NCBI GenBank assembly: GCA_964566575.1
Contig: CAZMKD010000024.1
Location: 14 to 64,013 of the forward strand
Origin: an uncultured Verrucomicrobiota bacterium
GTDB lineage: Bacteria > Verrucomicrobiota > Verrucomicrobiia > Palsa-1439
DNA: 64,000 nt
Reading direction: 5' to 3'
This document shows, in pieces, positions 2,772-55,147 of the stretch. Positions within the stretch are counted from its first letter, which is position 1, and every line of letters begins with the position of its first letter. Below the pieces are notes generated by a model. The model was not told where the DNA came from, searched no databases, and was given only the letters and a program-made list of their open reading frames with translations. A program made the position numbers and the translations under genes.

Positions 2772-3545
2772 CTACGGGAAACTCAACTTCTGCCCCAACA
2801 CTTTGCCTTTTAATTGCGTTAAGGCCATGTCCGTGCCTTGAGTGGTCACAGACAGACGTGTTCCAAGTGCTTCGCCAGTGCCAACCAAGCGCAACTTCGA
2901 CGTTTGCGTTGTCGCGTTATAGCTTCCAGTGACTTGGTAGCCCAATTCACGACTGTTGGACAGCGTTATTGTCCCGGTGCCCGTCAAAACGTTTCCCGAT
3001 GCCGTGAAGTCGATGTCCAACGACCAATCTCCGGTCATGCCGTCAGGCAACGGAAGCTCGACCTCACCATATTGCGTTAAGCATTTGTGACCGACGATAC
3101 AAACACGAGTTGAGATAGTTTCCAACACCGACAGCGTGGACGGCACGATAACTCCCGTTCCGCGCCCCTTGGCTGTACCGATGAATGAAACGCCGCCGGA
3201 TACGCCGCTTAAAGTGCCTTTCCATCCGCCCTTAAAACCAACGGTCGGAGGCTTAGAAAAAATGCGCCCTGATGTGTAACCCGTTCCTTCGATGTGATCG
3301 ACACCGTTATCGAAAACCTCTGATCGTACGCCGGTGATTCGCCCATTACTCTGCTGATGTGTGACCACAATTACAATGTCGTCCGTGTCCATACCGTTTG
3401 TATAGCTACCGCTTATGTCCCACAGAGGGAAGTCTGTGAACGGGTAGGTGAATTGACCACTGGACACTTGGGCAACGGCTGCACAAAAGCAGTGGAGCGA
3501 CAGGGTGACAAATCCGACAAGGGCAAGCGTGACTTTGCGTCTCAT
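2772..3545 (-). CDS. Secreted hypothetical protein (cargo)
   Basis: N-terminal signal peptide (MRRKVTLALVGFVTLSLHCFCAAVAQV), Gly/Thr-rich beta-type composition, no recognisable catalytic motif. Confidence 0.6.
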   Translation of the reverse strand: MRRKVTLALVGFVTLSLHCFCAAVAQVSSGQFTYPFTDFPLWDISGSYTNGMDTDDIVIVVTHQQSNGRITGVRSEVFDNGVDHIEGTGYTSGRIFSKPPTVGFKGGWKGTLSGVSGGVSFIGTAKGRGTGVIVPSTLSVLETISTRVCIVGHKCLTQYGEVELPLPDGMTGDWSLDIDFTASGNVLTGTGTITLSNSRELGYQVTGSYNATTQTSKLRLVGTGEALGTRLSVTTQGTDMALTQLKGKVLGQKLSFP

Positions 3546-3649
3546 AGTTCCTCCAACAACTTCGGGGTGACATGCCCAGTGTAAGTAATCGGTGTATCGA
3601 AAAGCAATAACGAAACTCTCATCTTTGGCTTTGTGACTGGTGCAACTCT

Positions 3650-4147
3650 TTAGGGTTTTGACGGCTCCGGTGTTGTCGTGAGATTGTTGTCTGTGGCGTC
3701 GGTAACCGCAGCCCCCTTGCCGTCCGCTACGTCCGCCGCCTGAATCGCCCGCAATGCCTCCCTTGCCTCCATCAACATCGCAGCCAGGTTGACTGTTACC
3801 GTCACGCCAGCCGGTACCTGGCCCATAAGTTCCAAGTGCTGCTGTGAGGCAATCTTTGAGGCAATGTAGGCTTGCATCGGTGACAGTTCGTGCGCTGTCT
3901 GCGCCGCTCGCTCTTGTGCCAATGCCGATAGCTCCAACGCCCGTTGTGCGATCAGCTTTTTTACCTGAGCGAAACCGTCCACGTCGCGGGTCAACAAGCG
4001 TCTGATCGTGGTGACATGGCAGCCCGCCATATCAGCGGTTTGCTGTAAGTCGCCTGTCTCCGCAAACGTCCGCAATGCTTTTGCTACGGCTAGCGGCTTT
4101 TGCTCCTCAATGCGTGGCCTTCTTGGTGGTTTCTTTTCTCCTGTCAT
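3650..4147 (-). CDS. HTH DNA-binding protein, possibly a small-terminase (TerS)-like or regulatory protein of the element
   Basis: HTH 'TADMAGCHVTTIRRLLT' near the N-terminus, ~165 aa, basic N-terminus; size and architecture resemble phage small terminase subunits (inference). Confidence 0.5.
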   Translation of the reverse strand: MTGEKKPPRRPRIEEQKPLAVAKALRTFAETGDLQQTADMAGCHVTTIRRLLTRDVDGFAQVKKLIAQRALELSALAQERAAQTAHELSPMQAYIASKIASQQHLELMGQVPAGVTVTVNLAAMLMEAREALRAIQAADVADGKGAAVTDATDNNLTTTPEPSKP

Positions 4148-5314: not shown

Positions 5315-5956
5315 GTGCACATCCGCAACGTGATTCTCGATTGGTCCGGCACGCTCGTGAACGACTTGCCGCCGGTCTTGGACACGACCAATCACGTGTT
5401 CGCAACCTTTGGTTTGCCGGCGTTGACGCTGGATGAATTCCGTCGCGAGTTCTGTCTGCCGATCCGCGCGTTTTATGAGCGACGGATTCCGCACGCGCCC
5501 CAAGCAAAGCTCGAAGAAGTGTTTCTGGCCCGGTTCCACGAAGTACAGGACCAGATCACACTCCTGCCGCAAGCGCTGGGGTTCCTGAAATATTGCCGGG
5601 GGGCCGGACTCGGCACCTACATTGCCAGCACGGTGGACGCGCACACCTATGAGTACCAGAGCAACCGCTTCGAGCTGACCGGCTGGATCACCAAGCCCTA
5701 TATCGGCATCGAGGACAAACGTCAGAAAATCCACCAGATCCTCGAGGAAAACCGGCTGACGCCGGCCGCAACACTATTTGTCGGCGACATGGAGCACGAC
5801 ATCGAGACCGGCAAGCACGGTGGCGTGCGCACGTGCGCGGTGTTGACCGGGTACAACCACGTCGAGAAGCTGGCGGCGATGCAGCCGGACGTGATCTGCG
5901 ACCATCTCGGTGAATTGCAGCAATGGATCGAATCACAATCAAAGACCTCGAAGTAA
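5315..5956 (+). CDS. HAD-superfamily hydrolase (phosphatase/phosphonatase-like)
   Basis: HAD motif I variant 'ILDWSGTL', motif IV-like 'GDMEHD'; 213 aa. Confidence 0.7.
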   Translation: MHIRNVILDWSGTLVNDLPPVLDTTNHVFATFGLPALTLDEFRREFCLPIRAFYERRIPHAPQAKLEEVFLARFHEVQDQITLLPQALGFLKYCRGAGLGTYIASTVDAHTYEYQSNRFELTGWITKPYIGIEDKRQKIHQILEENRLTPAATLFVGDMEHDIETGKHGGVRTCAVLTGYNHVEKLAAMQPDVICDHLGELQQWIESQSKTSK

Positions 5957-6270
5957 ACACGCAGATCGGCGTGACCGAGGCAGAGCGCGCACAGTTGCAG
6001 CGGCTACTGATCACCGTCGAAATGGAACGCGATCTCGCCGAAGCCGGTCGCACCGACATGGAATCCGCCACCGCGCCGTATGACGTCGTCGCCAATCTCA
6101 TCCAGCAAGTCGTCGCCGCGCGTCCGCGCAAACTGCTCGAAGCCGTCGCCGAAGAAATAGCCGATGCGATCCTGTCTCGCAGGCTGGCCGTGGCGGTAAC
6201 GGTCGAAGTGAAGAAGTTCAGCATTCCGCACTCCCAGTACGTGTGTGTCCAAATCCGCCGGACGCAATGA
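5923..6270 (+). CDS. folB: Dihydroneopterin aldolase
   Basis: 'IKDLEVNTQIGVTEAERAQLQRLLITVEM…' matches the FolB fold signature; ~115 aa. Confidence 0.75.
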   Translation: MDRITIKDLEVNTQIGVTEAERAQLQRLLITVEMERDLAEAGRTDMESATAPYDVVANLIQQVVAARPRKLLEAVAEEIADAILSRRLAVAVTVEVKKFSIPHSQYVCVQIRRTQ

Positions 6271-6947
6271 ATGCTCGGTATCCCATCGTGGTCTTGATCG
6301 CCGGGTGGCTGTGGCTAGGCGCTGCATTGGCCGACACGGTGCGCCTGAAGACCGGTGAGACCTTCGAAGGCACGATCCTGAGCGAAACGGACACCAAGGT
6401 CAGCATCGAGGTTGAATACGCCGCCGGGACGATTCTCTCGACGGAAACATTCAACAAGGGCGAGATCGACGAAATTATCCGGTCCACACCCGAACAACTG
6501 GCGCAGCGCGCCATGGAACGCGCCTACGCGAACACGCAGAAATACAAATTAGATTCCGCGCACAACTACACTCTCAACTACTACCAACTCGTCAGCGACC
6601 GTGTGTTGCGGCGTTTTCTTGCTGATTACCCGGACTCGCCTTACACGAATGCAGTCCAAGCCAAACTCAAAGAGTGGATCGCAGAACAAGGCAAGGTGGC
6701 CAGCGGTTTGCGCAAGTACCACGGCGTCTGGATACGGGCGGAAGAAGCCGCTCGACGGAATGCGGAAGCCCAGCCCCGATCGGCCATGGATCACGGCAGG
6801 GCGGCGGAAGCTGACTCGGCTGTCACCCCAGCCCAGAAAGACATCGTTGACGAAGTCGGGGAACTTCTCAGCCGATATTGGGTCATCGCGATCGTGGTGG
6901 TGGTGGCGATGCTGTGGCTGTGCGTGCACATCTTTACGCACGATTGA
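6267..6947 (+). CDS. Hypothetical secreted/membrane-anchored protein with a C-terminal TM helix
   Basis: N-terminal hydrophobic segment 'IVVLIAGWLWLGAALA', C-terminal TM 'YWVIAIVVVVAMLWLCV'. Confidence 0.55.
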   Translation: MNARYPIVVLIAGWLWLGAALADTVRLKTGETFEGTILSETDTKVSIEVEYAAGTILSTETFNKGEIDEIIRSTPEQLAQRAMERAYANTQKYKLDSAHNYTLNYYQLVSDRVLRRFLADYPDSPYTNAVQAKLKEWIAEQGKVASGLRKYHGVWIRAEEAARRNAEAQPRSAMDHGRAAEADSAVTPAQKDIVDEVGELLSRYWVIAIVVVVAMLWLCVHIFTHD

Positions 6948-9323: not shown

Positions 9324-9923
9324 TCAATCGTCCGCAGGTTCGTTCGAGGCAAGTTTCTCCGTGGCGAGACTGTGGTCGCCTTGAGCGGCGATCATGCCGG
9401 CGCGGCGGGCGTACTCAAAGATGCCACCGGCATCAATCACTGGCCGGGCGTCGCCGAGCGGTTTGGTCGCGTATTTCTTGCCGGCAACCTTCAGCGTATT
9501 GGCGTCGAGGTCGAGTTCGACTTCGTCGCCGGTCTTCAACGTCTCGCAAAGCCGGTCACTGGATTCGACGGGGTAAAGCTCGCCGGTCGCGACGCAGTTG
9601 CGGAAAAAGATGCGGGCGAAACCCTCAGCGATGACGGTCTGGCAGCCGGTCGCGCCCAGCGCGATGGGGGCATGTTCGCGGGAGCTGCCGCAGCCAAAAT
9701 TGCGACCGGCAATGACAATTGGGTACGCTGTTTTCAATTGTGCGTCGGTCACGTACCGGGCGGGGTACTGGTCGCGGGGCAGGCCGCATAAGGCGTAGCT
9801 GCCAAGCTTCTCATATTCCTCGGCAATGGTGGGAACGAGGTTCAAATATTGCGCCGGGATGATTTGGTCAGTGTCGATATTGTCACGCACGACGTACACC
9901 GGGCCGCGGATGATATGACTCAT
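9324..9923 (-). CDS. leuD: 3-isopropylmalate dehydratase / aconitase-family small subunit
   Basis: 'MSHIIRGPVYVVRDNIDTDQIIPAQYL…GRNFGCGSSREHAPIAL' is the LeuD signature; ~199 aa from an internal ATG; no leuC is adjacent. Confidence 0.8.
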   Translation of the reverse strand: MSHIIRGPVYVVRDNIDTDQIIPAQYLNLVPTIAEEYEKLGSYALCGLPRDQYPARYVTDAQLKTAYPIVIAGRNFGCGSSREHAPIALGATGCQTVIAEGFARIFFRNCVATGELYPVESSDRLCETLKTGDEVELDLDANTLKVAGKKYATKPLGDARPVIDAGGIFEYARRAGMIAAQGDHSLATEKLASNEPADD

Positions 9924-9973
9924 GCCGGGCAGTCTAGCAGCATCGCGGGAGCGCTGGCAAGGGGGCTGCTTAA

Positions 9974-11254
9974 GTGGAGAGCATGTCAGAGTATAGCGAC
10001 CCAGAACGGCTGTATACATTGGATTACCCGGACGGCTGGTTGCCGTTGACACACGAAGGCTCACCGCATGTCACGCTGGCAAGCCTGACCACGGGCGGCT
10101 ATCTCAAGATTGAGGCTTACCAATTTGAACAACCCAAGACAGACGAGATGCGTCCCGAGAAGACGCTGCGGGCGTTGCTGGACTGCGAACGGCGGACGTG
10201 GCCGCAGGTCGGCGAACCGTTGATCCGGTGCCGGACGCGCGAGGGAATGGCGATTGCCATGGCCACCTACACGCGCATCGAGATGGAGGGTGACGATCAT
10301 GCGGCGGATTTCGGGCACACCCAAGCGTGGATCTTCTCGCGCGGCGACGTGCAGGTGCGCTGCTTGTTCCGGTGCCGCAGCACCGATGCGGGCGAGGACG
10401 ACGATGAATTGGAGCAGATCATCAATACCCTTTGTCTGACCAACACCCGCCACCTCGATGCGGCGAGTTTTACGAGTTACTACTACAGCCTGCTCAAGCG
10501 CCACCGGCCGCAGTTGGCTGTGAAACGGCCCAACGGACTGGCGATCACAATGTCCGACGGACAGATCATTTTGCTCGAGCACTTGTTCAACCACTACCTC
10601 CAAGAGCCCGACCACATGGACGAACTTATTGAGTCGCACATCGGGTTGTTGGATTTCTGCGGCGATGACGTGCCGGATCTGACGAATTTCAAACTCATCA
10701 AACCGCTGCTGTTCCCTAAACTGTTCCGCGCGGCGTCGAGCGGACAGCCGCCGCACCGGGCCAAGCTCTGGCCGGGTTTGGCGATAGGCGCGGTCATTCA
10801 GGGCACCGTGTTCAACTACGGCGTCAATAACGAGCGGCTCAAGAGTTGGAGCGTGAGTTCCCTCAGCGACATTAAAGAGCATCTGATCGAAAACCTCTAC
10901 AACATCTCGCCGGTCGCTCCGCGCGGGCTGCGCGATGAGGACGGCACGACGCAGGCGATCAGCTACGTGGATCATCCGTTCAGCGCGTCATTCGTGTTGT
11001 TCCAGGATTTCTACGAAACGACGGCGCATAATCTCGACGCCGACGAGTTCCTCGTGGGGTTGCCGGACCCGAGTTGTGTGTCCTGCTTCCGCAACGACGA
11101 TCCGCGGTTCGTTGTCCAGCACACCGCCATGCTCCGGTGGGACTATCACCGCAGCGTCGAGAAACTCACCGACACCATCTACCTTGTGACCGGCCCGACG
11201 GTGAAGGAAGTCAAACCGTATGACATCCTCCACTGTTGCGTGAAGAAAGCTTGA
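9974..11254 (+). CDS. Hypothetical protein (C-terminal half possibly DUF1444/YtpQ-like)
   Basis: 426-aa ORF with ordinary composition; the antisense ORF 10061-10975 is Arg-rich and judged spurious. Confidence 0.5.
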   Translation: MESMSEYSDPERLYTLDYPDGWLPLTHEGSPHVTLASLTTGGYLKIEAYQFEQPKTDEMRPEKTLRALLDCERRTWPQVGEPLIRCRTREGMAIAMATYTRIEMEGDDHAADFGHTQAWIFSRGDVQVRCLFRCRSTDAGEDDDELEQIINTLCLTNTRHLDAASFTSYYYSLLKRHRPQLAVKRPNGLAITMSDGQIILLEHLFNHYLQEPDHMDELIESHIGLLDFCGDDVPDLTNFKLIKPLLFPKLFRAASSGQPPHRAKLWPGLAIGAVIQGTVFNYGVNNERLKSWSVSSLSDIKEHLIENLYNISPVAPRGLRDEDGTTQAISYVDHPFSASFVLFQDFYETTAHNLDADEFLVGLPDPSCVSCFRNDDPRFVVQHTAMLRWDYHRSVEKLTDTIYLVTGPTVKEVKPYDILHCCVKKA

Positions 11255-11303
11255 CCGGCGAGCTTGTCGGCAGGTCGTTGCCGCCCTCGACGATCTCCTT
11301 CCA

Positions 11304-11455
11304 TCAGATTAACTCATCCTCCCGTTTCGTGCGCGAGGTTTTCGGCTTCTTGGTCTGCGTCGCTTTCGCCTCTGCGCCGGCGCGTTCAAGGTTCAACTTC
11401 AAGAGTCGTTCGAGGATATGTTCGTCGGTGAGGTCGGTGGGCCAGCCGTAGTCGG
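11304..11455 (-). pseudogene. Diverged remnant of the 3' end of an MmeI-family RM/MTase gene (…DYGWPTDLTDEHILERLLKLNLERAGAEAKATQTKKPKTSRTKREDELI*)
   Basis: ~75% aa and ~70-80% nt identity to the last ~45 codons of the RM gene ending at 12225; no upstream body in frame. Confidence 0.5.
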
Positions 11456-12238
11456 CGGAAGCCGGCGGGGAAATTTCTCCGGGTAGCGCTCGCACAGGAA
11501 GCCAATGCGGTATCCCATCGCGGACAAGCTGATCCCTTGTTCCTGGGCCAATTGCCGTACCGTCGCTCCGGACTTCCAGCGCTCGCTGAGCCGGTTGATG
11601 GACGGCAACCGAGTTTGCCAATACCGCCGCCACCGCCGTTCCCTGGCTTGGCGCCATACAGAAGTCATGGCCACCCGGCGCGGAAACTTGTGCGGATACA
11701 GCTTGCGCCAGTAGCCAATCCGCACGGCGATACAAGCCCGGTTGACCCCGTATTCTTCCGCCAATTGACGCAGCGACGCCCCGGCCTTCCAGCGGGCGCT
11801 CAACCGGTTGATGGCGGGCAACTGGCTTGCACGGCGCTGCTGCTTCCGGAGTTCCCGCGCGAGCTTTTCCTGCTCGCGGCGTTCGGCCCGGGCGCGAATG
11901 GTCCCCTCGTGGCGAAGGACCTGGCTCGACGGGTACCCCAGCCCCTGACGGATTTGTCGGACGCGTTCGCGGCCGAGACCATACCGGCGCGCCAGCACGA
12001 TGTCGGTCGTCGTCAATAGTTCCTTTTTCAGTTGCTGGTACTCCGGCGCGCCGAGTTTTTGTAAACGATAGCCACGGCGCCGCAACAGGCGTTGCTGGTG
12101 CAAAAACAGGTAAACGCGATTCCCGTCCAAGTGGAGCCGTTTGGCTGCGACCGTCCCCGACAACTGTTGCTGGCAGTACAGTCGCCGAATCGCTGCCTCT
12201 TGCTCCGCCGTGAATCGCTTGCGCCTAGAGCATTTCAT
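11399..12238 (-). CDS. Tandem-HTH repeat protein (three sigma-70 region-4/transposase-HTH-like modules); start overlaps the RM stop
   Basis: Internal repeats 'LPAINRLSARWKAGASLRQLAEEYGV…YPHKFPRRV' and 'LPSINRLSERWKSGATVRQLAQEQGI…YPEKFPRRL'; ATG embedded in 'GATGAAATGCTCTAG', the last codons of the RM gene. Confidence 0.6.
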   Translation of the reverse strand: MKCSRRKRFTAEQEAAIRRLYCQQQLSGTVAAKRLHLDGNRVYLFLHQQRLLRRRGYRLQKLGAPEYQQLKKELLTTTDIVLARRYGLGRERVRQIRQGLGYPSSQVLRHEGTIRARAERREQEKLARELRKQQRRASQLPAINRLSARWKAGASLRQLAEEYGVNRACIAVRIGYWRKLYPHKFPRRVAMTSVWRQARERRWRRYWQTRLPSINRLSERWKSGATVRQLAQEQGISLSAMGYRIGFLCERYPEKFPRRLPPTTAGPPTSPTNISSNDS

Positions 12239-15200
12239 CGGCGTGTTTGGCGCGTGAGGTTTTCGGTTTCTTGGTTTGCGCTAACTTTGCTTCAGCGGCG
12301 GCACGTTCGAGGTTCAACTTCAGGAGGCGCTCCAGGATTTGTTCGTCGGTGACATCGGCGGGCCAATCGTAGGCGGCGGCGACGGCGGCGTCCAGTTTCT
12401 TGTGCGCCAAATCCAGCCAGGTCGGGCGTTCGTTGTAGAGATTGGTGAGCGTGCGTTTCTTGAGCTTGCCGGCGCAGTCGGCGTCCTTCGGGACGAGGCG
12501 CGGATACCGAGCAACGCCGATCTTGTAGGCCGCGTCACCTGACGCGGCGGTATTCCCGGATACGCCCGCTGAGGTCAGCGGGCCTACAACATACCGGGCC
12601 CAAGGCCCGTTCGCGCTGGCCGGGAACTCCAGCACTTCCTCGCACGTCCATTCCGGTGGATTGAGCCAGCGCTCGCGCAACTCGTTCAACTCTTTCGCGG
12701 CGGCGGCAATCGCGGTTTCCTGCTCCGGCGTCGCCTGCGGAAACAAAAACGTCTCGAAACATTCGGTCGGGTTGTAAGTGCGGCGTTCGCCACCGTGTAG
12801 CGCACAGGTTGCCGTAGTCCAGACTTCATGGATGCGTGACTGGAGAACTCCGAAATGGAAGTCGTCAGCGAAGGCGATGGCGATGACTTTCGAGTCCGGT
12901 AAGATGACGCTGTCCTGCCAAACGAAGATGCGGTACTTGGCGACGCGCGAAGTCGCGAGGTACCGGCGTGAACCCACAATGCTTTCCCTGAACGCCGGTA
13001 GCGTTTCACCCAGCAACCACCAATGCTCTGCGCGTGTCCTGCGGTTGTTCTTTTCGCGTTCAGGCTTCACGTGTTCAACCACGTGCCGGAAGGGCGCTTC
13101 GTAGAGCGCGGCTTCTTGCTGCGGTGTGCCGACGCCGAAGTCCACAATCCACCGGTTGGAACATTCGCGCACCAAGTCGCTGCCGTTGCGGAATGGGCGG
13201 AGCACGTCGCTGGTGGGTTTGCCGTGTGGAGTCGGCATCTGGAGCATGGCGATGGCTTGTTCTTCGGTGATGTCGAAATCGCCAACCTTGGTCGTGCCCA
13301 TGAAACAAAGGTTTTTGTTGCGCGGAGAGGAACTGCTTGCCGGTGGTGTCGAGGCCACTGGACAAGTCCGCGTTGATTTCGGCGATGTCTTTGCCGTCAA
13401 GAGTTGGGTTGTCGGGAGTTTTCGCGTTGCCGAATCCGACCATGCAAATGCGGATGGCCGTGCCTTCGTCCCACCAGTCGCGGTCGGAGATGGCGAAGAA
13501 GATTTTGCCGGTCTCTTTAATGCGCTCGAAGGCGTGGCGGGAACTGACTTGTTTCGACCCGGTGGTGGCAAGCAAACCGGCACGCTGACATTTGCCGCCA
13601 GCAATCAGTTCGCGGGCTTTCTCAAACCAGTAACAACAGAAGTCCGAAGTGGCTGGCAAACGGTCGCCAAACGTGTCGAAGATGGCTTTCGTGTATTCGT
13701 CACCGAGTTCTGTCCGCAGGCGTTTGTTGCCGAGGAACGGCGGATTGCTGACAATGACATCACACTCCGGCCAGTCGCGTTCGGTGTAGAATTTCAGCGC
13801 ATCTTCTTCTTCGTGTTCCTTTGCGCGCGCCTGCTTCAACGTCTTGGCCTTGCTCCGGTAATGCGGGACTACCAGCGCGTCTTCGTTGTGAAATCCGTCG
13901 AGGACTTGTAGGACGGGCGAGCGATCGAGCGGGAAGCCTTTGTCGCGCAGCCATTGGAGGTAGCCGATCTGGACGGAGACTTGCGCCAGTTCGAAGGCGT
14001 AGGGATTGATCTCGATCCCGCGCAGTTGTTGGACGCTGACTTGCGGCGTGAACTGGAAGCCGAGTTGCGTGGCGAAGGCGATGACTTCCTTTTCGAGACT
14101 CAACAGAAGTTGGAGCGAGACGTACAGGAAGTTGCCGCTGCCGCACGCCGGGTCGAGCACGGTGGTGGCACTGAGTTTTTTGAGGAACTTCGCGAGCCGG
14201 TCGCGGTCGGCGGTCGTGCCTTTGCCTTTGGCGTAGGAACGAATGAGGTCGCGTTTGATCCCCGTCCATTCGCGGCGCAGCGGTTGCATGAGGACGGGTT
14301 CGACGAGCGTCTTGATGTCGTCTTCGCTTGTGTAGTGCGCGCCGAGTTGGGCGCGGAGTTTGCCTTCGCCGTCGAGCGCGCGCTCGAACAGCGTGCCCAT
14401 GATGCTGGGTTGGACGTATTCCCATTCGCATTCGGCGGCAGCAGCGAGCGCGCGGATTTCGTCCTCGGTCAGTTCAAAGACGGTGGCTTCTTCAAAGAGG
14501 TGGCCGTTGAAATGCTGGATCTTGTGCAGGCCGAACGTGCCGCCCTTGGCCATTTTGCGGAACAGTTCTTCGAGGCGCTCGGCGAAGAAGCGCGGGTCGT
14601 CTACGCCCTGCTTGGCGAGGTCGCGGAAAATATCCTTGGGCAACAGGCCCACGTCCTCGGCAAAGAGACAGAAGATGATGCGATTCAGGAAGCGGGCGAT
14701 CCGGAGATTCTTCTTCTGCGCGACATGCACTTCCTTCCGTGTCCGGGCGTTGCTGAGTTCGACCGACTCGCGTTCCTGCAGCGAGCGGGCAACGGCGGCG
14801 ATTCGGCCGGCAAGGTCTTCGGTGACTTTGCTCGCGGTGTGCAGGGGTCGCAACGCTTCGGGGTCGGCAAAGACACCACGCAAAATCCGCAGACTCTCCT
14901 GCATGTCGATGGTCGCGTTGGTGAATTCGTGCGTCTCCTGCACCGCGCCATTGAAGTTGGTGCGGACGATGTAGCGGTCGAAATCGCAGACGACGAGCAG
15001 CGGCGGATTCAGAAGCGATTCGCGATACCGGAGCAGTTGCGTGTACGCGGCGTTGAGATTCTTCTTCTTGCCCTTGTACTCCCACGCGAAACAGTCCTTC
15101 TTCCACACATCGGCGAAGCCGCGGTCACCGGGTTCACCGTAGTCAGTATCCGCCTCCTTCACCAGCAGCAATTCGGCATCCTTGACGACGCGTTTCTGGA

Positions 15201-15387
15201 AGCAGAATGACTCGCTACCGGTCGGGTCGGCCTCGGCGGGAGTTGACTGGCCGAGCAACCGGCACAGGTCGTTGAAGTGTTCCTGGTAGGCAGACGACTC
15301 CTTACCAGTGTAGGCGCTCCACTTCCTTTTGAACTGTGCCCACGTCAATCCGCCCATAGCGGCAGAATCGGCATCCTTCCGTGACAT
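12225..15387 (-). pseudogene. MmeI-family type IIL restriction-modification enzyme (PD-(D/E)xK nuclease, N6-adenine MTase and TRD in one polypeptide), interrupted by a frameshift near 13312-13316
   Basis: N-terminal 'GFADVWKKDCFAWEYKGKKKNL' (D…EYK nuclease motif), MTase motif I 'LDPACGSGNFL', motif IV 'VSNPPFLG', conserved C-terminal 'TDEQILERLLKLNLERA'; the two ORFs (13075-15387 and 12225-13604) overlap in different frames, with out-of-frame Arg-rich tails. Confidence 0.75.
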
Positions 15388-15430
15388 GCCGGCAAGTTAT
15401 AGGCAATGGCGCCGGGCGGGGCAAGCCCGC

Positions 15431-15468
15431 CGCGAAAACAAGAAGCCGGGCACGAGGGCGTGCCCGGC
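15431..15468 (-). terminator. Rho-independent terminator downstream of gap
   Basis: Perfect 11-bp GC-rich stem (AGCCGGGCACG/CGTGCCCGGCT) with a 4-nt loop, followed on the minus strand by TTCTTGTTTTCG. Confidence 0.45.
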
Positions 15469-15486
15469 TTTCGTGTGCAGACAAAG

Positions 15487-16623
<1,137 letters not shown>

Positions 16624-21146: not shown

Positions 21147-22901
21147 TTAGTGTTTCATCAATGCAGGGTCAACCCGGTAATACTTCACGTTCGAGTATGG
21201 CCGGTCGTGGTACTTGTAGTTCTTCAGCCACGGCGCGAACAGCCCGAACGCCAGCGGATGCGTCATGAAGATGGCGGAGCAATCCTCGACCACCAGCGCT
21301 TCCATCTTGCGATACAGCGCCGTCCGCTCAGGCGAATCCTCCATCACGCGCGCCTGCTCAAACAGCCGGTCGAACTCCGCGCTGACGTAGTTGGAGTTGT
21401 TCGGCCCCGGCGACACGTTCTTGCTGTAAAACAGCAGAAAGAAATAGTACGCGTCCGGCGCATCCACGACCCAGCCGACCCGGTACATCTGACACTGTTT
21501 GCGTTCGAGCTTCTTCAGAAACTCCGGCCAGTTGTTGTAGCTCGGGCGCAGTTCCACGCCGATCTTCTCCCAAAAACTTGCCAGCAAATCGGCCGACTGA
21601 CGCTCCTCGACATCCGCCGCCGTCGGCAGCTCGATCGCCAACGACAGCCGCCGCCCTGTTTTCGGATCGATCCCGCCGGGATAACCCGCCTCCGCCAAAA
21701 GCCGGCGCGCCCGGTCGAGGTCGTACGGAAACCGCGCCGGCAAGTCGTAGCCGTTGCCCGGCACGCTGGGCGGCAACACGCCTTTCGCGGCGAGTTGCCG
21801 GTTGTTGTAGAACCGCACCCATTGATCATAATTCACGGCGCAGGCGAGAGCCTGACGGAGACTCTTGTTCGCGCCAACGACCGGGTCTTCCATGTTGAAG
21901 CCGACGTAGTACGTCGCCAGCCGCGGCGCTTTGTCGAGCCAGATGCCCCGCGCCTTCAACTCGGGTGTCAGTTCCTGCTGCGTCGAAATCACCGCGTCGA
22001 AATTCTGCCGCGCGATGCCCGAGGCTGCAAGCCCGCCGGAGAGGAATGCCAGCCACTCCGTCGAATCGTCGGCGATGACGTATTGGGTGACGCGATCGAG
22101 AAACGGAACCGGCTGGCCGGCGTCGTCGAGCAAACCGCGCTCACGGTCGCCGGGCGCGCCGCGGGTCGGGTACGTGTCGCCGTGGTAATTCGGATTGCGC
22201 GCGAACTCGATGGCGTAGTTGCGCCATTTCCAGTTCGCCAACACAAACGGCCCGGTGCTTACCGGATGGTTCAGAAATTCCTTCCCGTAAAACTCCACCG
22301 CCTCGCGTGCGACCGGGAACGTTTCACTTTGAGTGAGACTGAAGAGCAATTGCGGGAACGGCTCGCGGAGTTTGATCTGAATCGTATAAAGGTCGAGCGC
22401 CTTGAGTCCCGCGACCGGCTCGTCGTAGCTCACGCGGCGCTGGCCGGATTCCTTCCGGTATTCATCCAGGCCGGCAATGCGACCTTCGACCGTGAAATAC
22501 CGGGGGCTAAGGTTGTGGATATCGGCGAGACGCTTGATGGAATAAATAAAATCCTCTGCGACAAGCTCCCGGCCTTTGCCAGCGGGAAAACATATGTCGT
22601 CGGCGAAGCGCACGCCCTTTTTCAGGTGAAACGTGTACGTCAGCCGATCCGCCGAAATCTCCGGCATCCCTTCGGCCAACATTGGCTTCAGCCGGTACGG
22701 CCGTTCGAGGTATTCGTATTCGTAAAGCCCCTCGTAGACTTTGCAGATCGCGGCAATGGCCGTCGTATCGCTGGACGTGACAGGGTCAAACCCGCGAATG
22801 CGTTCGGTTGCACCGACGTAGTGGAGTTGGGGATGGGATTCGAAATCCGCCAGCGCAGCGGTGGCGATGAGACAGGCAATGGCCAGCGCCAGCGCGCGCA
22901 C
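21147..22901 (-). CDS. ABC transporter substrate-binding protein, family 5 (OppA/DppA-like), paralogue 1
   Basis: 584 aa with a signal peptide; SBP_bac_5-type composition; 60% identical in its N-terminal half to the adjacent paralogue. Confidence 0.85.
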   Translation of the reverse strand: MRALALAIACLIATAALADFESHPQLHYVGATERIRGFDPVTSSDTTAIAAICKVYEGLYEYEYLERPYRLKPMLAEGMPEISADRLTYTFHLKKGVRFADDICFPAGKGRELVAEDFIYSIKRLADIHNLSPRYFTVEGRIAGLDEYRKESGQRRVSYDEPVAGLKALDLYTIQIKLREPFPQLLFSLTQSETFPVAREAVEFYGKEFLNHPVSTGPFVLANWKWRNYAIEFARNPNYHGDTYPTRGAPGDRERGLLDDAGQPVPFLDRVTQYVIADDSTEWLAFLSGGLAASGIARQNFDAVISTQQELTPELKARGIWLDKAPRLATYYVGFNMEDPVVGANKSLRQALACAVNYDQWVRFYNNRQLAAKGVLPPSVPGNGYDLPARFPYDLDRARRLLAEAGYPGGIDPKTGRRLSLAIELPTAADVEERQSADLLASFWEKIGVELRPSYNNWPEFLKKLERKQCQMYRVGWVVDAPDAYYFFLLFYSKNVSPGPNNSNYVSAEFDRLFEQARVMEDSPERTALYRKMEALVVEDCSAIFMTHPLAFGLFAPWLKNYKYHDRPYSNVKYYRVDPALMKH

Positions 22902-22903
22902 GG

Positions 22904-24718
22904 CTACCGCACCTTGGTTTGCCAGTTCAGGTCGGTCTTGTAAAACTTCATGTTCGGGTACGAGAAGTCGTGGAACTTATAGTTCGTGAACCACTGCTGC
23001 TGCAACCCAAACGCCAGCGGATACGTCAGCGTCATCCACACGGCGTCGGCGTTGACTATGTCGGCCAATTGCATATAGAGCTTGGTGCGCTCCGTCCCGT
23101 CTTGCATTTGGCGGGCTTGGTCGAAGAGTTCGTCAAACTTCGGGTTGCTGTAGTTCGTGTGGTTCGGGCCGGGCGACATGCTCTTGGAGTAGAACAACGT
23201 CAGATAATTCTCGGCATCCGGGTAGTCCGCGACCCAGCCGAGCCGGAACATCTGTTGTTGTTTGCGCTCTATCTTCTTCAGGAACTCCGGCCAGTTGTTG
23301 TACTCCGGTACGAGCTGCACGCCGATCGCGGAAAAGAACGCGGCCATCAGCTCGATTGATTGTCGTTCCTCCGGCTCGCTGGCGTTGCCGAGTTGGACGG
23401 TGAGTTGCAAGCGGTTGCCGGTCTTGGGATCGATGCCGCCGGGGTAACCGGCTTCGGCGAGCAGCTTCTTCGCCTTCTCCAAATCAAACGGATACGGCAA
23501 CGGTTTGCTCTCGTCGTGTCCGCTCATGCCAGGCGGGATCGGGCTGTTGGCCGGCATCTGGCGGTCGTTGTAGAACTCGCACCACTTCGCGATGTCCACC
23601 GTGTGGCAGAGAGCCTGCCGGAGTTTGCGATGCCGCGCGTCCTCGGCTGGGTCTTTCGACCGGCCTACTACCGGGTCCTCCATGTTGAAGCCGAGGTATG
23701 TCGTCCATAAATTCGGCGCTTTCTCCAACCGGATGCCTTTCTGTCGGAGGTCGATCGTCAACTCTTTCTGCCCGGAGATTACTGCGTTGAAATTATCCTT
23801 AGCGATGCCGGCCTGGCCAAGCGCACCGGACAGGAACATCAGCCACTCCGTCGAATTGTCCGCGATCACGTATTGACGAACTTCCTGGATGAACGGCACA
23901 GGCTTGCCGGCCTCGTTGAGCAATCCTTTCTCCTTGTCACCCGCTTCGCCAATCGTCGTGTATGTGTCACCGTGATAGGTGGGATTCGCCCGGTAGGTGA
24001 TGCCGTAATTCCGGTACGTCCAGTCGGCAACGAGGTACGGGCCGGTGCCGACCGGGTGATTGAGAAACTCCTTGCCGTAAACCTCCACCGCCTCGCGCGG
24101 CACGACAAACGTGTAGCTCATCGTCAACACCCAGATCAATTGCGGGTACGGCTGCGTGAGCTTCACCTGCAACGTGTGCTTGTCGAGCGCCTGGATGCCC
24201 GCGACCGGCTCGTCGTAACTGACTTGCCGTTTCGACGACTCCTCGTGGTACGCGTTGATGCCGGCAATCTTGTCCTCGAAAATCCAGAAACAAGTGCTCT
24301 GCGTCTTCACGTCCGCAATGCGTTTCCAAGAGTACGCAAAATCTTCCGCCGTCACCTCGCGCCCCTTGCCGCCGGGGAAACACGGATCGTCCGTGAAGCG
24401 CACGCCTTTCTTGAGATGAAACGTGTACGTCAACCCGTCCGGCGAGACCTCCGGCATCCCTTCCGCGAGATTTGGCCGCACCCGGTAGGGCCGGGCGAGA
24501 TATTCGTATTCGTAGAGGCCTTCGTAGACTTTGTAGATCGCGTACGCGCTCGGCACGTCGGAGGACTGCACCGGGTCGAATCCGCGAATCCGGCTCGTCG
24601 CCCCGCAATACACCATTCCCGTCGCGACGCCGAAATCTGTGCGGGTCGAGGATTGCTCCAGCGCCCACGCCGGAGCGGAGAGCAACAATGCGGCGACCAC
24701 CAGTTGGGTCGCACTCAT
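22904..24718 (-). CDS. ABC transporter substrate-binding protein, family 5, paralogue 2
   Basis: 604 aa with a signal peptide; tandem paralogue of 21147-22901. Confidence 0.85.
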   Translation of the reverse strand: MSATQLVVAALLLSAPAWALEQSSTRTDFGVATGMVYCGATSRIRGFDPVQSSDVPSAYAIYKVYEGLYEYEYLARPYRVRPNLAEGMPEVSPDGLTYTFHLKKGVRFTDDPCFPGGKGREVTAEDFAYSWKRIADVKTQSTCFWIFEDKIAGINAYHEESSKRQVSYDEPVAGIQALDKHTLQVKLTQPYPQLIWVLTMSYTFVVPREAVEVYGKEFLNHPVGTGPYLVADWTYRNYGITYRANPTYHGDTYTTIGEAGDKEKGLLNEAGKPVPFIQEVRQYVIADNSTEWLMFLSGALGQAGIAKDNFNAVISGQKELTIDLRQKGIRLEKAPNLWTTYLGFNMEDPVVGRSKDPAEDARHRKLRQALCHTVDIAKWCEFYNDRQMPANSPIPPGMSGHDESKPLPYPFDLEKAKKLLAEAGYPGGIDPKTGNRLQLTVQLGNASEPEERQSIELMAAFFSAIGVQLVPEYNNWPEFLKKIERKQQQMFRLGWVADYPDAENYLTLFYSKSMSPGPNHTNYSNPKFDELFDQARQMQDGTERTKLYMQLADIVNADAVWMTLTYPLAFGLQQQWFTNYKFHDFSYPNMKFYKTDLNWQTKVR

Positions 24719-24722
24719 GGCA

Positions 24723-25160
24723 CTACGGAGTCTTGGCCGGCTCGGAGGCCGGCTCCTCAGGAAGGGCAGTCGGCAAAGCGGTCGGCTGCGACGGCGCGGG
24801 AGCCGATAGCGTGGTCGGCTGCGACGGCGCGGCAGCCGGCAATGCGGTCGGTTGCGACGGCGCGGGAATCGGCAACGCAGGGGCGGATTGGACCGCTTTC
24901 TCCATCAGTGACCCAGTGCCGCCGCGCCGGGTGTGCAAAATCGCCAACAGCAACGTCGTGCCGAGCATGATGCACGCGCACCAAATCGTCATCTTCAGCA
25001 ACGCCGTCGTGGTGCCGGCGCCAAAGACCGTCTCAGTCATCCCGCCACCGAACGCCGCGCCAACGCCTTGGTCCTTCGACTTCTGCATCAGCACCAACAC
25101 AATCAAAAACAGTGCCACCAACACGTGGATCACCGTCAAAATTCCAATCAATACGCTCAT
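24723..25160 (-). CDS. secG: Preprotein translocase subunit SecG with a proline-rich repetitive C-terminal extension
   Basis: 'MSVLIGILTVIHVLVALFLIVLVLMQKSKDQGVGAAFGGG…' is the SecG signature; the tail 'PAPSQPTALPA' x3 is encoded by 33-bp tandem repeats. Confidence 0.7.
   Translation of the reverse strand: MSVLIGILTVIHVLVALFLIVLVLMQKSKDQGVGAAFGGGMTETVFGAGTTTALLKMTIWCACIMLGTTLLLAILHTRRGGTGSLMEKAVQSAPALPIPAPSQPTALPAAAPSQPTTLSAPAPSQPTALPTALPEEPASEPAKTP
24781..24880. repeat. Three tandem 33-bp repeats (GTCGGCTGCGACGGCGCGGG…) inside the secG 3' end
   Basis: Units begin at 24781, 24814 and 24847 with >85% identity. Confidence 0.6.
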
Positions 25161-27256: not shown

Positions 27257-27282
27257 CCTGCTTGTTGGACTACCGGCTTACT

Positions 27283-27365
27283 TGTCGGACAGCGCCGCGA
27301 CGCCGGGAAGTTCTCGGCCTTCGAGGAACTCCAGCGACGCGCCGGCAGTGCTTATGCGAAGTTGA
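27283..27365 (-). pseudogene. Diverged remnant of the pgk 3' end (…[25 protein letters not shown]) just downstream of the DUF5615 gene
   Basis: Minus-strand translation matches the pgk C-terminus '…[26 protein letters not shown]'; ~70% nt identity including an 18-nt identical core (AACTCCAGCGACGCGCCG). Confidence 0.5.
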
Positions 27366-27672
27366 CGTTGTTCACAATGCCGGATTCGCCGGCCCTGTCG
27401 AGCAGACGAACCAGTGCCGCACGCTCAGCCACGCGTGTTTTCTTGCGAATCAAAATGATGAGACCGCGATGGGGTTGTGATCTCGCTAAGGCCAGATAGT
27501 CGTCGCGGTTGCAGGTAATCAAGATCCAGCCTCGTTGATTGGCATGGGCGAGGACGTCAATGTCGGCGGTTTCTTCGGGCAAGACTTCGCGCAAACGTAC
27601 AACTTCATGACCGAGCGCACGGACGGAATAGACAATGTCGTCCGGAACGTCGTGATCCAGCAGGAAGGTCAT
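27352..27672 (-). CDS. DUF5615-family PIN-like protein (putative toxin component)
   Basis: ~106 aa; typical partner of DUF433 proteins; 4-nt overlap with the upstream DUF433 gene. Confidence 0.6.
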   Translation of the reverse strand: MTFLLDHDVPDDIVYSVRALGHEVVRLREVLPEETADIDVLAHANQRGWILITCNRDDYLALARSQPHRGLIILIRKKTRVAERAALVRLLDRAGESGIVNNVNFA

Positions 27673-27932
27673 GCGTCGGGCGGCGACATCTGACGGGCGA
27701 CCAGTACGTCAATCTCTCCGCGATGGTCTTCGTAGTACGCGAGGCATTCGTACACCTGCGCCTTCGTGATGTCCGGGAAACAGGTCGCGGCGATACTGTC
27801 TACGGTCTCGCCGTTCTGGAGCAACCCGACGACATCGTGCACGCCGATGCGTGTGCCCGCAATGATGGCGTTACCGCCTCGCACCCCGGGCTTGCGGGTG
27901 ATGTACCGATACTCTGTTCCGAGTTCTGCCAT
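27669..27932 (-). CDS. DUF433-domain protein (putative antitoxin/DNA-binding component)
   Basis: 'YRYITRKPGVRGGNAIIAGTRIGVHDVVGLLQNGETVDSIA…' matches the DUF433 signature; 87 aa. Confidence 0.65.
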   Translation of the reverse strand: MAELGTEYRYITRKPGVRGGNAIIAGTRIGVHDVVGLLQNGETVDSIAATCFPDITKAQVYECLAYYEDHRGEIDVLVARQMSPPDA

Positions 27933-27989
27933 GCGCTACGTCTATACCACGCGGCAGGCTGCACGGCAAATCGGAAAACCCGGTAGTTC

Positions 27990-29189
27990 TCAGCGATCGG
28001 ACAACGCGGCAACCCCCGGCAGTTCCTTGCCTTCCAAAAACTCCAGCGACGCGCCGCCGCCGGTGCTGATGAACGTAACGTCCTTGGCCACGCCAGCCGC
28101 CTTCACGGCTTTCGCGCTGTCGCCGCCGCCGATGATCGAGGTCGCGGCCTTGTTACCGGCTACAGCCTTCGCCACGCTGAACGTGCCGTTCGAAAACTCC
28201 GGTATTTCGAAGATGCCCATCGGCCCGTTCCAGACGATCGTCTTCGCGCCGGCGATCTCTTTCCTGTAGCGCTCGATGGTTTGCGTCCCGATATCCACGC
28301 CGCACCAGCCGTCCTCGATGCTCGGGCCGTCGGTGACGCGCGTCGTCGCGCCGGCTTTGGGTTCGGTCGCTTGCAGATGATCGAGTGGCAACAGGAACGT
28401 CTTGCCCTTCGCCTTCGCGAGCAACTCGCCGGCAAGACCGACCTTGTCGTTCTCGACGAGCGATTTGCCGATGCCGAATCCCTGCGCCTTGTTGAACGTG
28501 TACGCCATCGCGCCGCCGATGAGAATCGCGTCGGCCTTCTGCAGCAGGTTTTCGATGACCGCGATCTTATCGGAAACTTTCGCGCCGCCGAGAATTACGA
28601 CGAACGGTCGTCCCGGGTTTGCCAACGCGCCGCCGAGGTATTTTAATTCCTTCTCCATCAGAAAACCGGCCGCCGCTTTGCCGCCGCGCTTTTTGATGAT
28701 CTCCGCCGCCGCGGCTGTCGAAGCGTGCGCCCGATGCGCCGTCCCGAACGCGTCGTTGACGTAGATGTCGATTCCATTCGCGAGCTTACCGGCAAACGCC
28801 GCGTCGTTCTTCTCTTCCTCCGCATAGAATCGCAGGTTCTCCAGCACCAGAACGTCGCCCGGTTGCAGGATGGCCTTGGTATTCTCGACCTTGTCGCCGA
28901 TGCAATCGTCCACGAACGCCACCGGCCGCGACAAAATCTCCGCCAACCGTTGCGCCGCCGGCCGCAACGACTGTTTCGGATCGCGTTTCCCTTTCGGCCG
29001 GCCGAGGTGTGAACACAAAATGACGCGCGCGCCGTACTGCCAGAGATACTCCAACGTCGGCACGGTTGCCTTGATGCGCTTGTCGTCGGTGATCGCGCCG
29101 GTCTCGTCGAGCGGCACGTTGTAATCAACGCGGCAGAGCACTGTCTTGCCGCGAATGTCCTTCAGATCGTTAATGGAAAGTTTCGCCAT
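27990..29189 (-). CDS. pgk: Phosphoglycerate kinase
   Basis: Starts at 'MAKLSINDLKDIRGKTVLCRVDYNVPL'; canonical PGK motifs throughout. Confidence 0.9.
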   Translation of the reverse strand: MAKLSINDLKDIRGKTVLCRVDYNVPLDETGAITDDKRIKATVPTLEYLWQYGARVILCSHLGRPKGKRDPKQSLRPAAQRLAEILSRPVAFVDDCIGDKVENTKAILQPGDVLVLENLRFYAEEEKNDAAFAGKLANGIDIYVNDAFGTAHRAHASTAAAAEIIKKRGGKAAAGFLMEKELKYLGGALANPGRPFVVILGGAKVSDKIAVIENLLQKADAILIGGAMAYTFNKAQGFGIGKSLVENDKVGLAGELLAKAKGKTFLLPLDHLQATEPKAGATTRVTDGPSIEDGWCGVDIGTQTIERYRKEIAGAKTIVWNGPMGIFEIPEFSNGTFSVAKAVAGNKAATSIIGGGDSAKAVKAAGVAKDVTFISTGGGASLEFLEGKELPGVAALSDR

Positions 29190-53821: not shown

Positions 53822-54133
53822 TCAGTTTCCCAGGATTTTCAGGAACGAGCGCAGCGGGCCGGTCTTTTGGGCGGACGCCAGGATGGTGTCGAGTTCGGTG
53901 GCATCCAGCCACAAGCCCCGGCAACTCGGGCAGACGTCCACCGCGCCGTGTTTTTCCGTCAGCAACATCTGGCCGCACTTGGGACAATGCATCCAGTGTA
54001 GGTCTTTGAGCCGGTGCTTTTCCTCGGCGGCGGCTTTCTGTTGCTGCTCGCCGGCCTGTTGCAGCCGCTGCTTCAGTTCTTGTTCCTTGAAGTACTGCTC
54101 TTCTCTTTCGCTGGGTTCAACCGGCACAGTCAT
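53822..54133 (-). CDS. Zinc-ribbon (zf-TFIIB-like) small protein, copy A
   Basis: 'HCPKCGQ…CPSCRGLWLDATEL'; coiled-coil 'EQYFKEQELKQRLQQAGEQQQKAA'; near-identical paralogue at 55148-55468. Confidence 0.6.
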   Translation of the reverse strand: MTVPVEPSEREEQYFKEQELKQRLQQAGEQQQKAAAEEKHRLKDLHWMHCPKCGQMLLTEKHGAVDVCPSCRGLWLDATELDTILASAQKTGPLRSFLKILGN

Positions 54134-54258
54134 CACCTCGGTTTGTTGGAGACAGGTTACACAAGACATCTACGACCGACAAGCAGGAAGCCGCCTTCCA
54201 AGTGCCGGTCGGTTTCGGTTGACGCAGGGGCGGACGACCAACACAATCGCTGTTCCAG

Positions 54259-55089
54259 ATGAGTGCGTTGATGATACCGCTGGTGATTTTCATTCTTTGC
54301 GACGCGCTGTTTGTCGTCTGGCCAAAGCGAGCGGCCCGTGGCGGGGGCGCGGGGAGGAACGGGCTTGGGCAGGCGGCGATGATGGCGGCGGTGGCGCTGA
54401 CGGCGGGATGCGCCGCGCCGACGAACTCGCTGTTTCCGCCCGCGGCCGGCGAGCCGGTGCGCACGGTGCACGTCGTCAACCACGGCTGGCACACGGGGCT
54501 GGTGATGGCGCGGGCCGATCTGCCGGCGGACTGGCCCGCGCTGGAGGATTTTCCCCAGACCCGGTTTTTGGAGTTTGGCTGGGGCGATGCCGGTTATTAT
54601 CCGGCGGAGCGGCCCGGGTTTTGGCTGGCGGCCAAAGCGGTGTGCTGGCCCACGCCGAGCGTGGTGCACGTGGCGGCCATCCCGGGCGCTATTCGCGAAG
54701 AGTTTCCGGACAACGACATCGTGGCCGTTGAGCTTTCGGAGGCGGGCTTTGAGCGGTTGCGCGACCGGGTGCGCCACACATTTGATCTGGTGGATGGCCG
54801 GCCCGTGGCGACCGCGCGCGGGTTGTACGGCGACGGAAAGTTTTACCGGGCGCGAGGAAAATTCTATTTTCCGCGGATGTGCAATTACTGGAGCGCGTCG
54901 GTGCTGCGGGCGGCGGGTTGTCCGGTAACGCCGGCGCGCGCGTGCACGGCCGGCGGTGTGATGGCGCAGGTGAGAAAATTCGGGCAGCCACTGCCGCGCG
55001 TTGCAGGCGGCGGCGGGGCGTTTTTCGACCGCGACGTGGACGAACTGCTCCGACTCCAAGACACGCCCCGCATCGGTCGCTGTACTTGA
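54259..55089 (+). CDS. DUF2459-family lipoprotein
   Basis: Lipobox 'LTAGCAAP'; 'VVNHGWHTGLV…LEFGWGDAGYY' is typical of DUF2459 (TIGR02117). Confidence 0.6.
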   Translation: MSALMIPLVIFILCDALFVVWPKRAARGGGAGRNGLGQAAMMAAVALTAGCAAPTNSLFPPAAGEPVRTVHVVNHGWHTGLVMARADLPADWPALEDFPQTRFLEFGWGDAGYYPAERPGFWLAAKAVCWPTPSVVHVAAIPGAIREEFPDNDIVAVELSEAGFERLRDRVRHTFDLVDGRPVATARGLYGDGKFYRARGKFYFPRMCNYWSASVLRAAGCPVTPARACTAGGVMAQVRKFGQPLPRVAGGGGAFFDRDVDELLRLQDTPRIGRCT

Positions 55090-55147
55090 TGGGCGTCGGC
55101 GCAAGACAGTGACACCGCACGGCCGGGCTGGCAAGCAGTTGGTGGCG

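Follow-up and report, generated by a model that had tools for sequence, protein, structure and literature searches.

Replacement of the 3' end of an MmeI-family restriction-modification gene as the probable origin of a relic gene tail in a verrucomicrobial genome

We analyzed a 64,000-nucleotide stretch of DNA (hereafter, the window) from an uncultured Verrucomicrobiota bacterium (assembly GCA_964566575.1, contig CAZMKD010000024.1, positions 14 to 64,013), in which the end of a restriction-modification (RM) gene is repeated behind a small helix-turn-helix (HTH) gene. The RM gene lies on the minus strand between positions 12225 and 15387 and belongs to the MmeI family of Type IIG enzymes. Its product matched the Pfam families MmeI_N, MmeI_hel, MmeI_Mtase, and MmeI_TRD above the cutoff and MmeI_C just below it, and it matched REase_MTase_IIG of PADLOC with E values of 3.5e-166 and 1.2e-84. 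The predicted protein fits the single-polypeptide architecture of the family, with an N-terminal nuclease, a helical spacer, a gamma-class N6A methyltransferase, a target recognition domain (TRD), and a C-terminal domain. The reading frame is broken by a +1 frameshift in a run of five adenines (13312-13316), which yields two open reading frames (ORFs) at 13075-15387 and 12225-13604; with one adenine taken out of the run, they become a single ORF of 1053 codons. The frameshift could reflect an error in sequencing the homopolymer, true inactivation of the gene by mutation, or phase variation. No Rfam match was found in the region 10800-15600, and a scan of 11100-12700 for promoters and terminators gave no signal over the shuffled background. 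Comparison of the window with two other loci (L062 and L050) uncovered no conserved operator or other motif upstream of the RM gene.

The RM gene is followed on the same strand by an 840-nt gene (11399-12238) that encodes a protein of 279 amino acids. The TAG stop codon of the RM gene (12225-12227) and the ATG of the HTH gene (12236-12238) overlap within 14 nt (12225-12238), an arrangement that is conserved in homologous loci. The ATG sits within CCGATGAAATGCTCTAG, 14 nt ahead of the end of the RM stop codon. An AlphaFold2 (AF2) model built from 12 sequences (mean pLDDT of 85) contained twelve helices arranged as four three-helix HTH units with long helices between them. Modules 3 and 4 are the product of a 213-nt tandem duplication inside the gene (11530-11856, minus strand; 11530-11643 and 11743-11856 are 70% identical), which was found by repeat search and alignment and is also present in the homologue P0002.

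Database searches with this protein returned little beyond its fold. Pfam yielded only subthreshold HTH matches, NCBIfam and PADLOC yielded none, and the best match of the model in a Foldseek search of the PDB had an E value of 0.25, with only generic three-helix HTH domains retrieved. IMG/VR contained no relative and PHROGs gave weak generic HTH matches only; a phage origin of the gene is rejected on these results together with the empty PADLOC search. Close homologues are rare: 15 clusters were found among 5.8 billion proteins, all of them metagenomic except the window's own. A profile search of 1.84 billion representatives added 778 remote relatives. Ten of these, the longest included, were scanned, and all consisted of HTH modules in series, with as many as 9-10 stretches matched in a single protein, and lacked an enzymatic domain. 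P0290, P0299, P0306, and P0308 are arrays of this kind, 700-1186 amino acids long and with no other domain, an architecture to which no function is assigned. The HTH protein of the window, likewise devoid of enzymatic domains, is most likely a predicted DNA-binding regulator that would be co-expressed with the RM gene through translational coupling, a function that we propose with low confidence. A further ORF of 143 codons at 11304-11735 was rejected as a real gene, having no family match and overlapping the HTH gene in another frame of GC-rich DNA.

A repeat search of the window followed by alignment identified a direct repeat of 145 nt (11314-11458 and 12235-12379) with 79% identity and a spacing of 921 nt. 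The upstream copy, extended to the stop codon (12225-12379, minus strand), is the current 3' end of the RM gene and reads AAYDWPADVTDEQILERLLKLNLERAAAEAKLAQTKKPKTSRAKHADEML before the stop. The downstream copy (11304-11458, minus strand) consists of 50 codons and a TGA stop, reads ADYGWPTDLTDEHILERLLKLNLERAGAEAKATQTKKPKTSRTKREDELI before the stop, and was recovered by tblastn with an E value of 4e-21; it ends 50 nt away from the stop codon of a convergent gene of 423 codons. Over the full extent of the two copies, 37 of 155 nt and 13 of 51 codons differ, corresponding to 76-79% nucleotide and 75% amino-acid identity, and the stop codons occupy identical positions. A repeat of this quality is far above the chance level for a 64-kb window. 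The HTH ORF extends for about 60 nt into the downstream copy, in a different frame. The sequence-only reading of this DNA had described the repeated RM tail, the HTH start codon embedded in the last RM codons, and a tandem HTH protein, and all three descriptions agree with our measurements. The RM gene is, however, split by the frameshift, and the sequence-only reading had placed the 279-codon ORF within a 770-bp spacer, whereas the ORF is longer than that and takes its ends from the two repeat copies.

The two RM tails appear to have diverged as coding sequences. Twenty-two of the 37 differences fall at third codon positions (binomial P = 0.001), and the frame is kept. Because of this third-position excess and the intact frame and stop, most of the divergence probably arose while both tails ended working genes in separate lineages. 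The downstream copy ends in EDELI, a type of ending found in several RM genes that have no HTH partner, and differs in this from all HTH-linked RM tails, which end in EML with the HTH ATG embedded. In the downstream copy, the ATG equivalent to the HTH start is followed immediately by a stop codon. Judged by its codon pattern, the downstream copy is probably the relic of a diverged earlier RM allele and not the product of a local duplication.

In metagenomes, the HTH gene accompanies the same kind of RM tail. At least 8 distinct metagenomic loci carry an HTH homologue preceded by matching RM-tail sequence with the 14-nt stop/start overlap, among them L009, L011, L014, and L062, and this arrangement was seen at every locus for which sequence upstream of the HTH gene was available. 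In L062, a complete RM gene of 1051 codons is directly followed by the HTH gene. In L009, LERAAEEAKAAQTKKPKTSRGKRDDEML and a stop codon lie upstream of the HTH gene, and at least 28 RM tail codons are preserved up to the contig end. Elsewhere, less of the RM gene is left: L014 retains 118 codons of its 3' end with the RM body absent, L050/51 has an RM N terminus of about 20 amino acids fused to the last ~95 (an internally deleted RM gene), L063 has 67 tail codons adjoining a different methyltransferase, L049 has a stub of 31 codons, and the stubs of L001, L007, and L011 comprise just 27-36 nt. GTDB genomes also contain RM genes with this extended tail (L015-L027, L032, L036, and others); of 22 such homologues, none had the HTH gene beside it. 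These arrangements identify the HTH gene as the native downstream partner of one RM subclade, in an operon-like pair and not as a free cassette. The RM gene of the pair often decays, after which the HTH gene persists with an RM tail stub of variable length. Since homologous HTH loci carry the RM tail upstream, the unit that arrived in the window would have comprised the 3' part of the RM gene and, linked to it, the HTH gene.

Independent RM relics in L050 (9652-10014) and L041 (242-560) have the first 12-20 codons fused to the last 30-95, so that both ends of the gene are kept despite a large internal deletion. L001 (1-12300 of a 16-kb metagenomic contig) contains two HTH copies (3490-4101 and 5731-6342) among small same-strand genes, with families of 55-120-nt intergenic repeats between the genes, and its layout resembles cassettes. 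The consensus of these repeats folds weakly (-1.3 kcal/mol, with no covariation), and no integrase was found on the part of the contig examined; an integron is not supported for L001, where the repeats do not fold like attC sites. L007 (7301-10582) carries two tandem HTH genes (~9379-9993 and 10001-10582) that are 73% identical and adjoin a short gene with a Phage_integrase domain, a metallophosphatase gene, and a ligase-like gene; this region may be a mobile element. In L011, the ORF upstream of the HTH gene (1080-1385) presumably starts as the N terminus of an RsmI-type methyltransferase, continues as unrelated sequence, and closes with RAKRADEML, a stub of the RM tail; a housekeeping gene there seems to have been truncated by an insertion.

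The junction between the HTH gene and the relic was resolved by a three-way comparison of the window, the 3' end of the HTH gene in L009, and the current RM tail. The conserved part of the HTH protein stops at EKFPRRLPP (~11453), and its last ~18 codons come from reading on into the relic tail, in the other frame. Homology to HTH genes runs through CTT CCG CC, and homology to the RM tail begins with CCGCCG-CTACGG. The shared hexamer CCGCCG (11453-11458, minus strand) belongs to both partners, being part of CTT CCG CCG (LPP; compare FPP in P0002) in the HTH gene and of GCC GCC GCC TAC in the RM tail. The native C terminus and stop codon of the HTH gene are gone at this point; its homologues run 5-20 residues beyond FPxR. 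The junction is the apparent signature of a microhomology-mediated illegitimate joint, by which an arbitrary end of incoming DNA would have been attached to the interior of a resident gene.

The RM gene itself is a mosaic. In comparison with the RM gene of L062, residues 100-550 of the repaired protein are 82-96% identical, the TRD region (600-850) is 30-56% identical, and the tail is ~80% identical. This mosaic structure indicates that TRD-bearing 3' segments have been exchanged between RM alleles. The G+C content at third codon positions of the RM and HTH genes, 0.73-0.76, equals that of the host genes, so the donor would have been a related bacterium. The longest identical stretch between the two RM tails is only 13 nt. 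Recombination from tail to tail is therefore unlikely, and the anchor should be sought further upstream, where the conserved 5' body of the RM gene would have made a much better recombination anchor than the tails; the high identity to L062 over residues 100-550 lends indirect support to a homologous crossover there.

Synteny with relatives is conserved on one side of the locus only. The 423-codon gene and its left neighbors (LeuD, the type II secretion ATPase, and CvpA) are conserved in relatives at 82-84% identity. To the right of the 423-codon gene, the relatives differ from one another and have a glycosyltransferase gene, ExbB/ExbD, or GSDH. Because these right flanks vary and none contains an RM gene, the block composed of the RM gene, the HTH gene, and the relic is best described as an insertion at a variable junction.

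We consider it probable that the relic is the displaced tail of an earlier RM allele, pushed aside when the 3' part of the gene was replaced in a C-terminal displacement of the type attributed to homology-facilitated illegitimate recombination (HFIR). According to this model, an earlier MmeI-family allele would have resided at the site and ended 50 nt from the convergent 423-codon gene. A diverged allele from a related bacterium would then have replaced the 3' part of the resident gene, and the incoming piece would have brought along a different TRD as well as its own tail with the HTH gene, whose native overlap with that tail is 14 nt. The upstream join is seamless and could have been made by homologous recombination in the conserved N-terminal or methyltransferase part. 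On the downstream side, the incoming DNA would have ended in the last HTH codons and, at CCGCCG, been fused illegitimately to the resident gene at its codon -50, which would have pushed the old tail downstream without removing it. The same product could have formed in two steps, by insertion of an RM-HTH pair beside the old gene and a subsequent microhomology-mediated deletion.

Two further loci of the window have the same architecture. The first is the pgk gene (27278-28056, minus strand), where the gene tail (27990-28056), a pair of full-length DUF433 and DUF5615/PIN-like genes (27352-27932), and a relic pgk tail (27278-27344, reading GASLEFLEGRELPGVAALSDK before the stop) follow one another. 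The last 22 codons of pgk are repeated with 17 of 67 nt changed, two conservative K/R replacements, and an identical stop position; 10 of the 17 differences are at third positions (P = 0.027). The longest identical run between the pgk tails is 18 nt, and at the joint, which lies immediately behind the stop codon of the toxin gene, no more than 5 nt are shared. The idea that the C terminus of the toxin was made from the pgk relic was rejected: eight homologues end in NINFA, with lengths of 106-108 amino acids among the matches listed. The DUF433/DUF5615 pair also occurs in L068, L070, and L071, between unrelated genes and with no flanking repeats. Since the pair is found elsewhere without a flanking repeat, the tail repeat would reflect particular events and not a property of a cassette.

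The second locus is a zinc-ribbon gene (53822-55468, minus strand). The gene (55148-55468) is followed by a DUF2459/TIGR02117 gene on the other strand (54259-55089) and by a displaced copy of the zinc-ribbon gene (53822-54126), which corresponds to 55148-55458 and is devoid of the first ~3 codons and of the native start. The copies are 88% identical; third positions account for 21 of the 31 differences (P = 9e-5), and the homology extends no further than the stop codon. In the upstream copy, which lies in the operon, the second CxxC has become CPTYRG, with one Cys lost, and a VD insertion has been gained; the displaced copy keeps CPSCRG. Taken together, the displaced copies at the RM, pgk, and zinc-ribbon loci appear to be diverged alleles that evolved as coding sequences. 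No tyrosine or serine recombinase domain was detected in the genes flanking the three loci, no tRNA gene was found in the window, and no Rfam element lies near the three loci.

A fourth case comes from an unrelated metagenome-assembled genome (MAG). In L037 (10732-11856), three small genes, which we take to be DUF6883-like, DUF4926-like, and of the MqsA zinc-finger type, stand behind an MmeI-family RM gene, and behind them lie 120 nt of relic RM tail. The relic looks more canonical than the tail in use. Elsewhere in the window, three copies of a 33-nt tandem unit (GGTCGGCTGCGACGGCGCGG) occupy positions 24747-24867, inside or next to a pair of tandem paralogues (21147-24718).

Several observations weigh against the displacement model or narrow what it explains. 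In the L037 relic, only 9 of 24 differences are at third positions (P = 0.41), with no bias. The body of the relic in the window (LLKLNLER...QTKKPKTSR) is nearest to the HTH-linked RM subclade (74-76% amino-acid identity), so the earlier allele would have been a close cousin of the current one, which fits an old local origin too. The hexamer CCGCCG is GC-rich and carries little weight as evidence in a genome of 61% GC. No RM gene stands beside the 423-codon gene in the relatives examined, and a search via this neighbor found no relative with an intact ancestral RM allele at the site. The upstream crossover cannot be located, and the one-step HFIR route and the two-step route of insertion and deletion would both fit the sequence. 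HFIR also presumes that the organism takes up DNA, by natural competence or otherwise. Finally, a regulatory role of the HTH protein finds no support in a conserved operator upstream of the RM gene.

The same observations were weighed against other explanations. In one of them, a 921-bp unit composed of an RM tail and the HTH gene, circular or linear, would have inserted into the resident RM gene by a Campbell-type crossover or with the help of a site-specific recombinase acting in trans, and the tail would have served as homology arm or att site. Integration by a single crossover gives exactly the order tail-cassette-tail, three such structures occur within 64 kb, and HTH genes elsewhere carry RM tails of varying length into contexts without an RM gene (L001, L007, L011, and L014). 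However, an identity of 13 nt makes a poor RecA substrate, there is no clear att core, and neither a recombinase nor a tRNA gene is nearby. A second tail was not seen at HTH loci elsewhere, the 22 related RM genes have not been invaded, and the DUF433/DUF5615 pair travels without repeats. The putative unit, moreover, would end within the HTH gene, at the cost of the native C terminus of the protein, which is unexpected for an element with defined ends. We therefore regard a mobile unit of this kind as rather unlikely. The sequence-only reading had proposed a recurrent mechanism that places small cassettes behind genes while displacing a copy of the tail. The displacement and its recurrence are borne out at pgk, at the zinc-ribbon gene, and in L037; nothing points to a dedicated machinery for moving cassettes, and an independent HTH cassette is at odds with the native RM-HTH pairs. 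The alternative given there, that the remnant once ended an RM allele since replaced through recombination, is the one favored by the codon bias, the junction, and the mosaic RM gene.

It is improbable that the unit of RM tail and HTH gene was duplicated in tandem on the spot, after which the second HTH gene would have been lost and the orphan tail would have slowly decayed. HTH genes are tandem or multicopy elsewhere (L007 and L001), the HTH gene of the window itself contains a tandem duplication, and both tails come from one RM subclade. An orphan tail would, however, drift evenly over the codon positions, in contrast to the third-position excess and the preserved frame and stop of the relic, and its DELI ending with a stop directly behind the corresponding ATG is foreign to the HTH-linked form. 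No trace of a second HTH gene is present in the 50 nt before the neighboring gene. The pgk relic, too, has changed at a quarter of its positions or so in DNA and hardly at all in protein.

An assembly artifact, in which two co-existing strain variants were joined into one contig, is very improbable. The apparent source is a metagenome-type assembly, and the tails do resemble alleles of different strains. The join, however, shares 6 nt, far fewer than the k-mer of any assembler, the 279-residue protein that spans it is also present in an independent Logan assembly, and the same structure was found at three loci of the window and at one in another MAG. A diversity-generating retroelement, with the downstream copy as template for mutagenic retrohoming into the RM tail, was refuted and is hardly conceivable: a ~150-nt repeat at a gene 3' end with a downstream copy resembles a variable repeat/template repeat pair, but the mismatches are not adenine specific (G/A 8, A/G 5, C/T 4, G/C 4, and others), no reverse transcriptase ORF is nearby, and no Rfam match was obtained.

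Displacement of an earlier RM tail thus accounts best for the locus, and it offers a checkable picture of how a Type IIG enzyme changes its recognition domain in nature, by a one-sided homologous exchange that leaves the old tail in place. The analysis also shows that RM genes of one clade have a conserved partner downstream, an uncharacterized multi-HTH family. That three scars, including one at the housekeeping gene pgk, lie within 64 kb suggests that recombination with an illegitimate end, involving DNA of related strains, is frequent in this lineage. Relic tails with third-position-biased divergence and microhomology joints could serve as a simple genome-wide marker of such events. If the frequency of scars proves ordinary, the locus is just a well-documented recombination scar. 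A bolder proposal is that this verrucomicrobial lineage regularly acquires small accessory units directly behind resident stop codons through 3'-end displacement, the examples in the window being the HTH partner, the DUF433/DUF5615 pair, and the DUF2459 gene. Every unit would bring along a diverged version of the target's tail to serve as its homology arm. Poly-HTH genes would, on this view, be hitchhikers specialized on the conserved MmeI-family tail, and their arrival would also switch the recognition domain of the enzyme. We consider this proposal speculative and, at present, unlikely.

C-terminal (3'-end) displacement has been described at Rhs, contact-dependent inhibition (CDI), and type VI secretion system (T6SS) effector-immunity loci, and HFIR has been proposed as its mechanism (Kirchberger et al. 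2017, PMC5361080; Jackson et al. 2009, as cited there). The locus in the window shares with them a conserved 5' gene body as the putative anchor, a new 3' part with a linked gene, an old end orphaned downstream, and the absence of a recombinase. It differs in the genes involved, which are a Type IIG RM enzyme, pgk, and a zinc-ribbon gene instead of a polymorphic toxin, in the linked gene, which encodes a multi-HTH protein and not an immunity protein, and in having a single relic instead of an array.

HFIR has been studied in transformable bacteria (de Vries & Wackernagel 2002; Prudhomme et al. 2002; Meier & Wackernagel 2003; through PMC5361080 and PMC3240628). As it is outlined in these two papers, HFIR combines one homologous end with one illegitimate end at a microhomology of a few bases and adds foreign DNA beside the anchor, as would be the case here. 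There it was defined by experiment, whereas in the window it is read from the scar alone; and the illegitimate joint in the window lies upstream of the end of the homologous gene, which results in a duplication-like relic instead of a deletion.

The prophages e14 and 21, in the icd gene of Escherichia coli, and islands in tRNA genes insert into gene 3' ends and bring a substitute end with them. As would be the case for the RM gene, the target remains complete, with a diverged 3' end supplied by the incoming DNA and the original end at the far side of the insert. Those elements, however, encode an integrase and have an identical att core, while the inserts considered here are 0.7-1 kb long and come without a recombinase, and 13 nt is the longest identical run between the RM tails.

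Controller (C) proteins of RM systems have ~80 amino acids and one HTH, are usually encoded upstream of the R gene, and bind a C-box. The HTH protein of the window is likewise a DNA-binding HTH protein encoded in the operon of a restriction gene. Members of its family, however, have 3-4 modules in 200-280 amino acids, are encoded downstream, and have no conserved operator that we could find; a C protein was rejected on the four modules in 279 amino acids and the missing upstream motif.

TRD exchange is known in the MmeI family and in Type I enzymes, where an ordinary double crossover leaves no relic. The RM gene of the window has the mosaic structure expected of such an exchange, in which the catalytic part is conserved and the recognition domain has been swapped, and would depart from the ordinary form in its one illegitimate end and in the old tail left behind. 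The locus is probably a known kind of recombination scar in a new setting, that of a Type IIG RM gene with an uncharacterized multi-HTH partner, of pgk, and of a zinc-ribbon gene.

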